A stretch of 64,000 nucleotides of DNA from Massalongia carnosa (Eukaryota), in the NCBI GenBank assembly GCA_965645245.1, contig OZ287080.1, forward strand, positions 930,001 to 994,000. Reading direction: 5' to 3'. The translations under genes and the position numbers were made by a program. Positions 37,850 through 62,371 of this stretch are shown piece by piece (positions within the stretch are counted from its first letter, which is position 1; each line of letters opens with the position of its first letter). Below the pieces are notes generated by a model, which saw only the letters and a list, made by a program, of their open reading frames with translations, did not search any database and had not been told where the DNA came from.

Positions 37850-39831
37850 ATGGCTGGCCCAGGTGGGGGTCCTCCACGAAAAAGTCATACGAAATCGCGC
37901 AAGGGCTGTAAGACATGCAAAAGACGGCATATTCGCTGTGACGAGAACTTTCCTCAGTGGTACGTTACCAATATGAGAAAAGCTACTCGCGTTGTTCTTC
38001 CTTAACCAATACTAACTCTTATATTAGCCGGAACTGTACTAAGCACAACTGTAAATGCGATTACATGGATAGTTTTATTCGACCAGAAGAAGCCACTAAA
38101 AGTTCTCAAGGGCCGAACCTACTCTGGACAGCTAAGATCGAACGTGAGGTAGAGCAATGGCAACGTACTGGGGTTTTCCCATTCTTCGACCTAAATCTGG
38201 AAGTATCTAGTCATTTTAATGGCCTGTCTTTGGTAGACTTACGTTTGATCCACCACTTATCAAGCATCTACGAAGATATGCAACGCAAAGACTTCATTCG
38301 TTGTACCTTATGGGTAGAAGAAATTCCCAGGTGAGGATTTAAGTGGTTAAACCACCGTAGCCATTCAAAGGCTAAATTATTCGTACCAGTTTTCTTAATG
38401 CTTCTGTTGGCTATGATTTCGTCATGAGCTCTATACTGTCGTTTTCAGCCACCCACCTTGCCTGGACGACTAAGTCAGTTGAGACGAAAAACCTTGCTTA
38501 TTACCATCGAGGAGTAGCTCTTAAAGGCTTGCATGGAGCGATTGGAAACTTCTCAAGAGAAAACTCCGATCCCATCTTGGCAGCGTCGATTTTGTTGTCT
38601 TGGCAGGCATCGGATTGGTAAGAATCGGTGCTGAAAACTGGGAGCTGGACTGACTGGCTCTTTGCAGGGGAGGCTGGACGTCGTTGATGCGCGGGATCTC
38701 TACGGTAGGGCTCTCCTTATCATCGTCAGAAATCTTCTGATTGTCTATTAGGTTATTTCCTCCATGAGTCAATGGAAAGAGCAGTCGAAGTTTTTCCTTT
38801 ACGTCGAAGATCACCCGGAATTCTTTTCAAGAATATCTTCGCACCCGCCGTCGCTTTCCTTTGATGACGAATCCCTCCTTCTAGCCACGGATGCGTTGGA
38901 GAGGCTTTCAGATAGGCTTATGAAAACACATCCTCTTTCTCGGCGATTGAAAGAAATATTGGACTTCACCAAGGAAATTCAATCCTGTAGTGCTACCATG
39001 CAAAGTGACCAACTCTTTGGAAAACTGCAACCTCTACGTGCGTGGCTATTCTGGATGCCTGTTACCCTTATTCAAGCCGAAGATATCGATAACTCGGAGA
39101 TGATTTTGTTGGCTCAGCTGTACACAATTGCTCTCGCGATTGATTCTTCAATACCCGAGCTTGGTGGAGCGGCCCTTGGATCTCTCACAGTTGATCCAAT
39201 TCGTCAAATCGACAGCAAACTTAGGTATAGCCAGATCTCCCTAAGCTCGGATACATCGGATTCGGATCAAATGATGCAATTCTCTCGCCTCATGATTGCC
39301 AGATGCTGCCTTGAGAATACGTCAAACCACGATGCACTATCAGCACATATTCTTGGCCCACATAGCCCGTATGGTTTTCAGCATCTCTCTATCGGATCCC
39401 AACCTAGCACGCCTGGGTTTGCCCCCGGGACCCCTGCTGGATTTTCTCCAGGTACTCCAGGATTCTCTGGTCCGTTCTCGACGATGCTAAATCCAAGCCT
39501 AGAAGATCTAAGTATCCCAGCATCTCCATTCCTTCGTTATGCGAGCCCCAAGTCTCGACCAAGCTCCCAACTTCTAGATATATCCCCGAGACTGAGCGAG
39601 GCTTCTTTCGAGAATGGATCCGTCTCTGCTTATAGCTTCAAAGGGGAATCTCCTGCATATTCTCCCCGACTTGCTGAGGATGAGCAGCTCCTGGTGTTTG
39701 GAGGGCATTCGCCGGGCTATACGGGAGGGTTAGTATCTCTACTCCATAACTGATGTAGGCTCTGACCAAAAACTAGAGATTTTCAATACGATGATTTCTC
39801 GGAGAGAGGCAAGAAACGAAGAACCACTTGA
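37850..39831 (+). CDS. Zn(II)2Cys6 transcription factor (Upc2-like C6 domain), multi-exon; last exon tentative
   Basis: MAGPGGGPPRKSHTKSRKGCKTCKRRHIRCDENFPQC|RNCTKHNCKCDY across intron; ILSFSATHLAW; GT-AG introns with CTAAC/CTGAC branch sites. Confidence 0.88.
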
Positions 39832-40251
39832 ACGGTCGGGTCTTTCTTTAACAAAGATAATTTTGAATTACAGATTTCTTGACCTGCCAAAAATAATCTT
39901 AATGGGCAGTACAAGATGATACGATTTCTACGAAGTAACGACGGGACTGATGGGCTTTTGCATAAGACATATGATATGATTGCTTTGCTGATCCATGCCA
40001 GCGGAGTGATAATATGAGCGTGGGTTTGAGGTTGCCACAATATTATCACCCTATTAGGTCTGTATTCATTCGTCCACTAAACTTAGTAGGTAGAGTTAGT
40101 TAATTAGCTTTGTAATCACAACTGGGTCACGGCAACAATATTAAAGACAATCAAATCGCTTTCTTAGAATCATCGGTACGTTTCTGTTCTTTGTATATTC
40201 AAGATATGTAGGCACATTTGAAAAATGTATTTACAGATGAGGGGAGGGGCG

Positions 40252-41574
40252 CACGCGGGTGACAAAATAAATTGCAACGTGTAAGCGAATTTACCCCCCC
40301 TTTTTTATTCAAATTTTCATCTCATCATCAACCATCATCTGCATAGCTGATAAAATTCATCTAAATTACATGAGATCAATAACCAGTCATCGCCCCCTTT
40401 GCATCTTTCACCTCTTTCAATCTTTTGGGCATGGATAACACCCTTTCATTGATAAATTCCTGACTGACTCGAGCCCATCCCTCCCTAATCAGCTGCTCCA
40501 AACTTGCATCGTCCCAATGAGGAAATTTACGAACATGCTGCTTTGCGGGCTGCCAGCAATTTTCAATGGGAGCTAGATCAGGAGATGAAGAACAATTGAA
40601 ATAGTGCTCTAATCGTGATCTAACTTCCACTTTTTGACTGCGTTTCGTCTCTTGCCCGTGCCATGACCAGAGTCTCCATCTTCTTCAAGTACGAAGTCAT
40701 CTCCACGCTCCAACCAGGGCTTGACGACGGGATCAAGAATAGCGTCAATATACACCTGATGAGTCATTTTTCCATTGCTATTGCTGGGCACATCGTAGAA
40801 GTAGATATCCGACTTGAAATTGTAACCAACTGCTGCCCAGCAGTGCTTTCTTTTACGATCTTTCTCAGGTGGTGCATCACGATGCTGAATACAATCCCAA
40901 CGATATCTTGTTCCGGGCTTACGAATGATTCGTAACTGTCCTTCAGGCCCGTAGCCAAAATGAATCTCATCGCTGAATCGTACGCGATGCCAGTCTTCGG
41001 ACCGAGGATATTTATTTAACATAACTGTAGCAAATTCTTCTCTTCTTTCTTCTGATGCCATTGCCAGCCACCCTTTGACACAGGCTAGACATTTGTGATA
41101 ATTCAAGGCAGCTGTAAGAGTTCTCTTCATTGTACGTCCCATCACGTCGGCCCCAATCTCCTGTGCTAAAGCATCCCATGTGTAGCGTTTTCCTTCCAAT
41201 TGTAGATCTTGATCCTGCAGAATGTGATCTGCCTCCTTCAGCTGATCATCACTAATCTTTCGCTTTCGACCCCGAGTCTCAACGAGAGAAGAATTGTGAC
41301 GTGTGCGAGAAGAAGCTCCGCTTTTGATGATGTTATAGCCCGCGCGCTCGGCCACGCCAAATTCCTGAAAAATGGCCCGGGGATCGAATGGAATTGCATG
41401 TGAGATGAGAAATTGATAAGCTCCTTGAACTTTGGCCTTTGTGGGAGTATCATAATGAGGCTTTTTGGGTCGAGACATTGATGATGAGATAAAAAGTTGA
41501 AAAAAAGGGTGTTTTGATGGGGCATTCAGGGGTAAATTCGCTTACACGTTGCAATTTATTTTGTCACCCGCGTG
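40252..41574 (-). mobile_element. Tc1-like (DD38E) DNA transposon, 1323 bp, frameshifted transposase
   Basis: Perfect 46-bp TIRs; RVRFSDE, LEEDGDSGHG, SPDLAPIENCW; ORFs 40609-41478 and 40376-40630 joined by a 1-nt frameshift; flanks GGGCG/GGGCG. Confidence 0.92.
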
Positions 41575-41656
41575 GGGCGTTACTTAATCAAGTTTCTTAA
41601 CATCTAATCATGTACAATAAAAAACCGCGCTACTGCATCTGAATAAACTACAAAGA

Positions 41657-42775
41657 ATGTCGGGAGGTTGGAACACCATCGAGTCGGACGCTGTGAGGGG
41701 CTTCTTTCAGGGACATACTTCTCATGCTGACTGCGAAAAGGGTGTCTTTAGTCATCTTGTTGCTCAACTGGGCGTGAAAGACGTCCAATTTGAAGAACTT
41801 GTTGCACTTGACGCCAACTATCTTGCAGCCCTGCGGTTTGTGATATCCATTGATTGTCGCGTGGCATGACTGAGACTCTTTGCTCTGGATAGTCCAGTCT
41901 ACGGAGTAATTTTTCTGTTTAAATATCCCACAGGAGAAAGCCAATCGACTAAGACCCCGGCGGATGGTACCTTTGATCTTGATGGCGCACAAACCCTCTT
42001 TTTTGCTGCGCAAACCATTCAGAATGCATGTGGCACTCAAGCCTTACTTTCGGTCTTGTTGAATCAGGAGGCGCACCTAGATATTGGACCGGATCTCAAA
42101 GCGTTCAAGGATTTCACCGGAGCTTTTCCATCAGACGTACCTTACACTTTCTAGCCATTATATCCTCACAATAGACGGACGCTGATTTGAGGAGCGTAGC
42201 TGCGAGGAGAAGCGCTGTCAAACTCGGAGGTCATCCGGGACGTTCATAACTCATTTGCCCGGTCGTCCCCTTTTATCAACGAAGCACAGCAGGTCGCCTC
42301 TAAAGAAGATGACGTCTTCCATTTCATTGCATACTCTTCGATCAATGACATACTCTACGAGCTAGATGGCCTACAGCCAGCCCCCATTTCACATGGCAGC
42401 TGCGCCTTTGATGAGTTTCCAACCAAAGTTATACCCGTTCTTCAGCGCCGGATTGAGAGGTATCCTGCGCAAGAAATTCGATTCAACCTACTAGCTATGG
42501 TGCGCGACCTAAGGCTCCGGGCTCGGGAGATCGGAGATCAAGAGTGGTTGAATCGAGAAGAACGGAAGCGGAAGGGATGGCAATGGGAAAACACGCTCAG
42601 AAAACATAACTTTGTTGGCTTCACGGGCGAATTGTTGAAAGGAGTGGTACGAGCTAAATTACAGGGTGATAGAGGCGCATACGCAGTTTGGGTTGAAGAT
42701 GCCATAACCAAGACTCAGGAACGAATGGAGCACGAAGGCCGTGTAGAGGGAGCTGGTAAAAATGTTAAGCCATGA
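41657..42775 (+). CDS. Ubiquitin C-terminal hydrolase, UCH37/UCHL5-type, multi-exon
   Basis: MSGGWNTIESDA|GVF, AAQTIQNACGTQA, FHFIAY, LYELDGLQPAP, IRFNLLAM, ENTLRKHNF. Confidence 0.9.
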
Positions 42776-43421
42776 AAGGTGTGGATGGGTTAAATGTGGT
42801 ACACCGATTGAGAGTTAAGATATAGGTGGTACCTCCCTTGAGCCTATATCCTGGATAAAATACCTTCTCTGGATAGAGCAGCAAATCGTCATTGACATCA
42901 ATATAAACAATGTCTATTGAACTGTTTCGAAGAGCTTGAAATTTATCTATACCTAATCAATAAATACAAAGTAAATACTCCGTATTATTAACCGGAAAGT
43001 TTTTGACCTTTTACACATTACTTTTATTTTTCAAACGTGACAACTTTACTGATTGTACAGGGTCAATAATTAGTACAGAGTAAGGAGTGGTCAAATTCTC
43101 CTAAGTTGACTTTTGTGAGTTATGTATGATTTTTCTCCAAATATGGAATCCGATTTGAAAAGTCTGTACCAAGTAACTTACTCCATAAGTAGTTATAAAA
43201 ATATAATACTAATGTCAAGGATGTATGATTGCGTACATGAAACTAAACCGCATGAACGTAATTTATTCAACGCAGTTGCAAGCAAGCCCCGCCACCTTGC
43301 CAGCGGTCGCATTCATGTTATCGCTTCTGTTCACGAATATAATGAACGGGTATCAAGGAGTAGTCATACACCAGTCTCTAATCTAGAGCTCTTCAAGCTG
43401 AAAGCAACCCGGAAGCCATTG

Positions 43422-60488: not shown

Positions 60489-61095
60489 AGATTTGGTTGA
60501 ATCAGGTCCACGGGACGTGGAGTAGGAATAAGTTTCGTCAATGAGGAACAAATTCTATAAGATCATATCATCAATATCATCGAAATTGAAGTTCATCGTG
60601 CTTTGTTGTGACTAAAAACTTAACCTCTCTCAGCCAGCAAACAGCTTGATAACCTTGAGTTATGGTATTTAAGTACACTCCATGTGTTGTTTCACCGATT
60701 AAGCAAAAAGCTTCGAGCATCAAACCCGAAACTCTCCCTAACCCCAAGTAACTGGGCCTCCGTATTTCCATGCTCCTATGCTATATGATTGTTTGTTCTT
60801 GTTCCTATGTCTTTATTGACCTGATGATCTACCACTGATGCATTTCAAACCCCCTTTCCCTTCATATGTTATCAGGCCATTACCTATCCTTTACACTGCT
60901 TGCATTGTACTCGCAATCACCTATCTCCAACGCTTAATCACGTTCAGTTTTGAGAATATTTTATAAAAGCTACAATCCAGACAGACTAGTTATAGCAACT
61001 GAAATTATAACTATTGCGAGCAACATCAGCGAGACTGCTGTATCCTACTTTGGATTTCCTTAAATGCTCCATCTTATTATGTCGGTATATCTAGC

Positions 61096-61715
61096 CACGC
61101 GGGTGACAAAAAAACGAGAACACCGAAATTTCGCTTGCTATCTAATTATCTCACATCTTATTTACATCAAACAATTTACCATCGAGTCATTTTACCCTCC
61201 ATATCAAGCACATCATCAATTCTTTTGGGCATTGATGCTACCCATTCGTTGATCTTGGTCTGAGAAAGCTTCGCCCACCCCTTTCTAATTGCAGCTATTG
61301 TGATTTGATCATCCCAATGAGATTGACGACCAACGATTTGCTTGGGGACCTGCCAGCAGTTCTCAATTGGCGAAAGATCGGGAGAATGAGAGCAGCTGAA
61401 ATAGTATTTCAATTGATGCTCGTCTTTCCATCTTCGTACGACGTTGTCTTTTCCTGAACCATGCCCGGAATCTCCATCCTCTTCCATTATAAAATCATCA
61501 CCTCTTTCCAGCCATGACTTGAGCTTGCTGTGCAGAATTCCTTTCGCCTGAGCATATTCCATAGCTCCCTGAACATTATCTTTAGCGGGAGTAGTAAAAT
61601 CACCATATTTAGTAGAATTAGCGGCTGAATTGAGCTCTATTATTATAATTGCGAAGGTTAGAAAGGTTGAGTAGCAAGCGAAAATTTTGGTGTCCGCATT
61701 CTTGTCACCCGCGTG
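61096..61715 (-). mobile_element. Internally deleted Tc1-like (DD37E) element, 620 bp, related to 40252-41574
   Basis: Termini CACGCGGGTGACAA; ORF 61176-61562 fuses N-terminus to MEEDGDSGHG...SPDLSPIENCW; flanks CTAGC/CTAGC. Confidence 0.9.
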
Positions 61716-62371
61716 CTAGCTAATGCCCGCGAATTATTAGTCGATTGTTTTATAGGATCCTACTGTCGCTATATCTCCTTGTCATGCTGCTACATCTTTC
61801 TAGTTAATGTTGCTAAATCTTTCCACTCCAAAGAAAGACTTGAAATTACAATCTCCAATCAATCGAATTTTCAATCTTGCCACTTAGTGAAGACTTTTTA
61901 CATTTTCATTATAAATTACTCCATTCCTCATTTAATCTTCATTCTCCACTTCTTTATTTTCACTCCTTATCTCGTCATATCGGCATTATAAAGCTAACGC
62001 GAAACACAAAATGAGAGTTATCGCAAAGATACTTGCAAAGAAAATCTGAAAGTGATATGGATAAGCGAGAAGATAAAGACAAACAGAGGCAGAAATGAAC
62101 CCGAAGAACCTAAAGAACGAGAAAAGGGGGATAGACGTAAAAGTGAAGAAAGATAAAAGGAGACGAAAAGAAGTCTTCATGAAAGATCTCGATAAAAAGA
62201 AGTGCAACAACATATCAAAGGGGTAGAGCGATAGCAATATCCTATTTGTACGGAGGTCTGAGTCAAAAGTAATCGGACACGCTAAATTTTAGCCCCAGAG
62301 CTAGCTGTTTTAATACGTGTTAGTCATTTTTAGCGTGAGAATATATTACATGTAGTAAATCCTACTTCTAA

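Follow-up and report, generated by a model that had tools for sequence, protein, structure and literature searches.

To our knowledge, all characterized Tc1/mariner enzymes work with a 2-bp stagger at TA, a stagger that is explained by the solved structures of Mos1 and Sleeping Beauty. Retroviral integrases, Mu and Transib/RAG use a stagger of 4–6 bp, and CAC...GTG ends combined with 5-bp duplications are the signature of Transib/RAG. Duplication of TA is the textbook signature by which Tc1/mariner elements and their miniature derivatives are recognized and classified, and excerpts of Kojima (2023; PMC10045372) describe the IS630/Tc1/mariner (ITm) elements in general as making 2-bp TA target-site duplications (TSDs). 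Here we describe element A, a Tc1-like DNA transposon that is bordered by 5-bp repeats and found in a stretch of 64,000 nucleotides of Massalongia carnosa (assembly GCA_965645245.1, contig OZ287080.1, positions 930,001–994,000 of the forward strand; the whole stretch is hereafter the window). Element A is very probably a young cut-and-paste transposon that belongs to a large ascomycete ITm lineage with a 5-bp duplication and a palindromic target.

Complete element A is 1323 bp long, has its transposase gene on the minus strand and is bounded by terminal inverted repeats (TIRs), whose 46-nt arms are 100% complementary and start with CACGCGGGTGACAA (Table 1). Inward of the TIRs, a fainter inverted similarity is found: an arm of 29 nt matches at 90%, and over 97 nt the identity is 78%. 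The sequence GGGCG stands immediately outside both ends and the sixth base outward differs, so that the repeat is exactly 5 bp, and TA is present at neither junction. At 41575/41576, contigs from other copies diverge from the window sequence as loose ends. Four occurrences of the 14-nt terminus are found in the window, compared with 0.24 expected from shuffles; two of them are the ends of element A, while the other two are the ends of a second copy, element B, which retains the C-terminus of the transposase alone (residues 246–365, 59% identity). Element B is divergent and internally deleted, belongs to a different subfamily and may be a non-autonomous derivative. It is flanked on both sides by CTAGC, a repeat that is again exactly 5 bp, with TA at neither junction, which provides independent support for a true 5-bp TSD.

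An unoccupied version of the site of element A is found in a public run labelled lichen metagenome (run X1), where a contig of 32,907 nt spans window positions 38800–40245 and 41574–43000 contiguously. The two flanks differ from the window by three and four letters and one 1-nt gap, and the joint omits 1328 bases, i.e., 1323 plus 5, with six letters that are ambiguous because they fit either side. The skip of 1328 bases indicates an unoccupied site with a single GGGCG in a close relative of the source genome. The filled site is present in runs X2 and X4, whose contigs break within the TIRs, as is expected for a multi-copy element. In run X5, element A is found at high depth and its flanks at depth 2–6, with some bins empty, from which no conclusion is drawn.

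The duplication was also tabulated among relatives. A protein-alignment scan of metagenome contigs identified 80 loci with 40–63% identity, in which termini were placed by a position matrix that was trained on ends and blind to flanks (consensus CACGCGGGTGACAAAA, from 110 sites). Both ends were placed in 36 of the 80 loci, which together with the two window elements gave 38 elements and, after merging of identical flanks, 33 unique sites. At 22 of these, the adjacent bases form an exact 5-bp repeat (23 with both of the hand corrections described below and 21 with neither), while exact repeats of 4 and 6 bp are found at none, of 2 bp at four and of 3 bp at three. None of the 33 unique sites has TA on both sides. 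When flank pairing was shuffled 10,000 times, the number of exact 5-bp repeats averaged 0.76 and never exceeded 6. The elements of the relatives are 1240–1506 bp long, each filled by a gene of about 1.1 kb, and whether their protein identity is as high as 99% or as low as about 40%, their Tc1-like gene is surrounded by the same terminus consensus, with variant termini following the transposase subgroups. Given element B, the empty site of run X1 and this family-wide tally, the 5-bp repeat is a true target-site duplication, from element A through relatives down to 40% protein identity.

These results bear on an earlier note made from the letters of the window, which had proposed perfect 46-bp TIRs flanked by GGGCG without TA and a different strand-transfer stagger. 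The complementarity of the arms and the letters at the junctions confirm the former, and the latter is supported by the 5-bp repeats in relatives and by the single GGGCG of the empty site. The outcomes that the note had named as refuting, namely most copies with TA or without 5-bp repeats, or both GGGCG copies at empty sites, were not what was observed: 23 of the 33 unique sites carry exact 5-bp repeats and the orthologous empty site in run X1 keeps one copy of GGGCG, not two.

Every confidently placed end, 38 unique left ends and 42 unique right ends, was used for analysis of the target. TA is found at positions -8/-7 in 13 of the left ends (P = 1.2e-6, binomial) and at +7/+8 in 14 of the right ends (P = 1.7e-8), while its frequency at other offsets is about 5–7%. 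On either side, the enriched TA is thus separated from the duplication by a single base and is itself not duplicated. The duplicated bases prefer C-C-W-G-S, with C at TSD positions 1 and 2 in 24–26 ends per side. The data fit a target consensus TA-N-[CCWGG]-N-TA, an 11-bp palindrome centered on the middle base of the duplication, which is the pattern expected of a two-fold symmetric transpososome that cuts 5 bp apart. Absence of a TA requirement, as proposed in the earlier note, holds for the duplicated bases; in their surroundings, however, TA is enriched and may still matter for target choice. The palindromic target site of this family is new in this analysis.

The transposase of element A is Tc1-like and a member of the ITm superfamily by enzyme homology, in sequence as well as in fold. 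The motifs FSDE, EEDGDSGH and SPDLAPIE are found in two minus-strand open reading frames (ORFs) of 289 and 84 aa, whose frames differ. P0001, a natural intact relative of 367 aa with 99% identity, is uninterrupted across this frame break, and contigs of three runs (X5, X2 and X4) have one additional A behind 40610, which indicates that the window copy carries a 1-nt deletion. P0001 matches Pfam DDE_3 with 39.2 bits (cut-off 28.6), while the broken pieces of the window copy reach 19.7 bits at most. Across 33 aligned members, D170 and D267 do not vary, and at least 90% have E306. The gap between D267 and E306 in P0001 is 38 residues; the spacing is DD38E in the clade of element A and DD37E in most relatives. 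Among PDB sequences, the sole match of the family profile is the catalytic domain of Sleeping Beauty (E = 2.4e-17), with all three motifs in register and, relative to Sleeping Beauty, three extra residues directly after the second catalytic D motif (DxDxxH).

The AlphaFold model, with a mean predicted local distance difference test score of 78.7 and low-confidence loops at residues 58–68, 129–136 and 178–200, has as its top fold matches Sleeping Beauty (template-modeling score 0.76–0.78 on target, E = 5.5e-11), Mos1 and SETMAR. Retroviral integrases and IstA appear in the fold search only at E > 1e-3, and no RAG or Transib chains are among the fold matches listed. The cut-off of the NCBIfam profile NF033545 (IS630) is 100 bits, and four members score 59.6, 48.0, 34.4 and 59.8 bits; the match of P0001 (59.6 bits, residues 34–338) covers nearly the whole profile. 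As judged from these profile scores, the family is homologous to IS630 but not an IS630 equivalog. Helices are predicted at residues 11–125 of the model, with which full-length Mos1 aligns at high root-mean-square deviation. In a scan of four members for PF01498 (HTH_Tnp_Tc3_2), P0001, P0005 and P0066 have no match and P0097 scores 27.6 bits against a cut-off of 31.5, and a precomputed PF01498 match is found in a minority of the 120 relatives listed. The enzyme thus agrees with what the earlier note had deduced about it: a Tc1-related lineage, as seen from DDE_3, the IS630 profile and Sleeping Beauty by sequence and fold, by which the enzyme is not Transib/RAG-like; Tc1-type motifs, which are found in the two ORFs, with a D-to-E spacing of 38, which P0001 has; and a 1-nt frameshift, which is matched by the intact P0001 and the extra A in three runs.

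With regard to mechanism, we infer that a transposase dimer bound to both ends would join the 3'-OH of each end (...GTG-3') to phosphates that are 5 bp apart on opposite target strands. On each strand, the attacked phosphate would be the one immediately 5' of the first C of CCWGG, and the 5-bp duplication would arise when the resulting gaps are repaired. A candidate determinant of the stagger is the loop insertion of three residues behind the second catalytic D motif, and this insertion might alter target capture. The flanking TA steps might be retained TA contacts that have been displaced outward, or they might be flexible steps that permit bending of the target.

Several points weigh against this interpretation. 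What we propose for the chemistry, for the dimer and for the loop insertion is inference. The tally leaves 44 of the 80 loci unscored, of which seven are short of flank and the others have an end that is degenerate or was missed by the matrix, and the independence of the metagenome relatives was judged from flanks alone. Once the data had been inspected, two anchors received a hand correction: in the L003 group, the terminus is 1 nt longer, which gives the exact repeat CGTGG, and for L049 an inverted-repeat search supplied the left end. At nine of the 33 sites (L002, L012, L014, L016, L019, L027, the L037 group, L051 and L077), there is no acceptable 5-bp repeat, and the repeat of L024 matches at four of five positions. 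Sliding the right flank by 1 nt makes L012 exact, and a slide of 2 nt brings L014 to four of five positions; the exceptions appear to be copies that have decayed or recombined or whose bounds are imprecise. The target logo comes from a modest sample of metagenomic sources with possible hidden redundancy of targets, and insertions into copies of one repeat may inflate it. No TA flanks are found in the inverted-repeat output of the 44 loci missed by the matrix, where the ends are too uncertain to count.

Could element A be an ordinary, TA-duplicating Tc1/mariner element whose ends have been misplaced, with GGGCG on both sides by chance? Such a reading would be in line with the superfamily rule as given in the excerpted text of PMC10045372, and TA is indeed enriched near the insertion sites. 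However, neither element A nor element B has TA at its junctions, the enriched TA lies one base outside the duplication and is unduplicated, and the family-wide count is zero sites with TA on both sides and 21–23 exact 5-bp repeats where 0.76 are expected. The empty site of run X1, which lacks exactly 1323 plus 5 bases, by itself already refutes misplaced ends, and we regard this explanation as having practically no chance of being correct. Another explanation, to which the CAC...GTG ends and the 5-bp duplications lend themselves as the signature of Transib/RAG, is that ends and TSD belong to a Transib- or CACTA-like superfamily that acts in trans, the Tc1-like gene being a passenger or nested. 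Against this, it is the Tc1-like gene that is flanked by the same terminus consensus from 99% to about 40% identity, the variant termini go with the transposase subgroups, and elements of 1.24–1.51 kb are already filled by a 1.1-kb gene, so that a host element could not be accommodated. Nor do the surroundings of the gene show a further, nested set of ends with TA, and the fold matches listed include neither RAG nor Transib. We consider action in trans highly improbable, if slightly less so than misplaced ends.

A different matter is whether the lineage, with the mechanism proposed above, has already been catalogued with its 5-bp duplication, for instance under a Mariner/Tc1 name in Repbase or Dfam. 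With 455 clusters at E ≤ 1e-30, the family is a large one that occurs widely among Ascomycota, and curators routinely record TSDs and have named variants by TSD length, such as hAT5, hAT6, hAT7 and PHISTA (PMC12730594, in excerpt). On the other hand, a search of the open full-text literature, with Repbase and Dfam outside its reach, found no description of a Tc1-like element with a 5-bp duplication; TA is still presented as the rule for ITm in general in the excerpted part of the 2023 paper, whose author is a Repbase curator (PMC10045372); and the excerpts of a survey of transposable elements in lichen fungi are silent on TSDs (PMC8773270), as are those of a paper on fungal Tc1 elements (PMC9977792). 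Searching papers for the letters of the terminus returned unrelated matches only. Prior cataloguing is thus a real possibility, to which we give roughly one chance in three. The suggestion of the earlier note that the lineage is possibly undescribed stands as far as the open full-text literature goes, Repbase and Dfam having been outside the search. As for the broader proposal, that element A represents an undescribed, ascomycete-wide Tc1-like clade with an integrase-like 5-bp stagger at TA-N-[CCWGG]-N-TA, in which a supposedly universal feature of the superfamily has changed, the chances seem to us about even. If it is true, the ancestral TA contacts may have survived three bases farther out on each side.

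Returning to element A as a young transposon with a 5-bp duplication, its perfect TIRs, the 43 member sequences in the 90% identity cluster of P0001 and the depth within the element point to recent activity. In run X2, word depth within the element is 5554 and 5681, compared with 171.5 and 148.8 in the flanking contigs, a ratio of about 30 that is suggestive only, as word depth from run contigs is not equal to copy number. Element A is young, insertion-polymorphic and recently mobile, and its family is probably still shaping these closely related fungal genomes. A profile search of 1.84 billion representatives, with clusters at 50% identity, returned besides the 455 clusters mentioned above 3575 clusters at E ≤ 1e-10. 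Relaxing the threshold to E ≤ 1e-3 raised the number to 12,914, a figure that stands for the wider superfamily. All named matches are from Ascomycota (Bimuria, Botrytis, Orbilia, Geopyxis, Pseudogymnoascus, Clathrospora, Pyrenochaeta and Watsoniomyces), and in the protein atlas the DDE_3 / HTH_Tnp_Tc3_2 clusters are from Ascomycota wherever taxa are recorded.

Variation is also seen among the copies of element A and among the relatives. Within window positions 40210–41619, contigs from other copies in runs X2, X4 and X5 have variant letters at 40570, 40571, 40591, 40908 and 41380 and an insertion of AGG behind 41505, so that the source organism contains several subfamilies of element A side by side. 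In L012, L014, L028, L056/L057 and L061, the repeat is exact or nearly so only if 1–3 extra bases are allowed between it and one terminus; imprecise ends, end variation or small indels could account for these bases. The left flank of L002 and the right flank of L037/L039, which lack matching duplications, share the sequence cattccggat..., so that these loci may be neighboring copies, and recombination may explain some elements without duplications. L049 has a further good match to the family terminus at about position 240, 139 nt upstream of its complete element (379–1707, with an 84-nt TIR and the duplication GTACG), which may be an adjacent or nested insertion. The N-terminus of P0026 (residues 1–75) carries ...SPDLNPIEHIW..., the C-terminal motif of another, canonical Tc1/mariner transposase, and in P0026 nested transposons have probably been fused into one gene model.

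The right end of element A lies 82 bp upstream of an ATG at 41657 (window 41575–41869). The first exons of the gene that begins there have a weak match to ubiquitin C-terminal hydrolase (Peptidase_C12, 20.8 bits, below the cut-off). As the insertion is absent in run X1, element A is polymorphic at this site, which is likely a promoter. The features of both elements are listed in Table 1.

Table 1. Positions of the features of elements A and B in the window, with strand and supporting observation.
Feature	Position	Strand	Observation
Left TSD copy GGGCG, element A	40247..40251		Single copy at the empty site of run X1
Element A, complete Tc1-like DNA transposon	40252..41574	-	Missing from the site-bridging contig of run X1
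TIR arm near 3' end of transposase gene, 46 nt, perfect, starts CACGCGGGTGACAA	40252..40297	+	Terminus consensus CACGCGGGTGACAAAA at 110 ends of relatives
C-terminal part of transposase, 84-aa ORF, SPDLAPIEN with catalytic E	40376..40630	-	Weak DDE_3 match; tblastn to P0001 residues 270–367
1-nt deletion splitting the transposase frame	40609..40612	-	Additional A behind 40610 in other copies (runs X5, X2 and X4)
N-terminal 289 aa of transposase: putative DNA-binding helices, first two catalytic D (FSDE, EEDGDSGH)	40609..41478	-	99% identical to P0001
TIR arm near 5' end of transposase gene, 46 nt, ends CCCGCGTG	41529..41574	-	Inverted-repeat comparison
Right TSD copy GGGCG, element A	41575..41579		Flank comparison and contig of run X1
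Left TSD copy CTAGC, element B	61091..61095		Flank comparison
Element B, 620 bp, internally deleted, same 14-nt termini, 17-nt TIR	61096..61715	-	Transposase residues 246–365, 59% identity
Right TSD copy CTAGC, element B	61716..61720		Flank comparison

Among the known systems, Tc1-type DD34E elements, such as Sleeping Beauty and, in fungi, impala, are like the element A family in having a single gene within 1.3–1.6 kb, TIRs and a DDE core that is RNase-H-like, and the N-terminal helices of the family may correspond to their helix-turn-helix domains. The motifs xSDE, xxDxDxxH and SPDLxPIExxW of the family align residue for residue with those of Sleeping Beauty, and the fold matches. The layout of the element A TIR, which starts with CA and has an A-run about a dozen bases in, presumably resembles that of Tc1/impala ends. 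Unlike Sleeping Beauty and impala, however, the family duplicates 5 bp of varied sequence, and the TA of its 11-bp target lies outside the duplication, a spacing that differs from the 2-bp stagger of Tc1/mariner and resembles the 4–6 bp of retroviral integrases, Mu and Transib/RAG. Element A thus belongs to ITm by enzyme homology but fails the TA criterion, and it fits no described TA-duplicating family. DD38E/Intruder and DD37E/TRT, which both duplicate TA, share the D-to-E spacing class of the element A clade and of most relatives, respectively, which may be coincidence; Intruder is described from animals in the excerpted text of PMC7731502.

These differences have practical as well as mechanistic consequences. 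Annotation pipelines that rely on TA would mis-bound or misclassify the family and deletion derivatives such as element B. A close relative of Mos1 and Sleeping Beauty with a 5-bp stagger at another palindrome offers a handle on active-site spacing and target bending and, if the proposed mechanism is true, a natural experiment on how a DDE transpososome fixes its stagger as well as a compact Tc1-type vector (1.3 kb, with a 367-aa enzyme) that is not bound to TA duplication.

With Transib/RAG1-type elements, the family has CAC...GTG termini and a 5-bp duplication in common, while the enzymes are unrelated, its 367-aa transposase matching DDE_3, IS630, Sleeping Beauty and Mos1. Transib ancestry of the shared signature was considered and rejected, since the enzyme is Tc1/mariner-like in sequence and fold, and the likeness is thus one of convergence. 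A change in duplication length with retention of the superfamily transposase has led to separate names for hAT5, hAT6, hAT7, PHISTA and ESTA, according to excerpts of PMC12730594; these belong to other superfamilies, and no 5-bp ITm counterpart was found in print. Within ITm, the known precedent for a non-TA duplication and a palindromic target is Tc4 of nematodes, arthropods and tardigrades, which in the excerpted text of a preprint (bioRxiv 10.1101/2023.11.06.565293) targets CTNAG and duplicates its center, TNA. In Tc4, the triad is DDD, the duplication measures 3 bp and the hosts are animals, whereas the element A family has a DDE triad, a 5-bp duplication and fungal hosts. A Tc1-like element with a 5-bp duplication would certainly come as a surprise to transposon specialists and is mechanistically useful, yet it is a variation within a known system.

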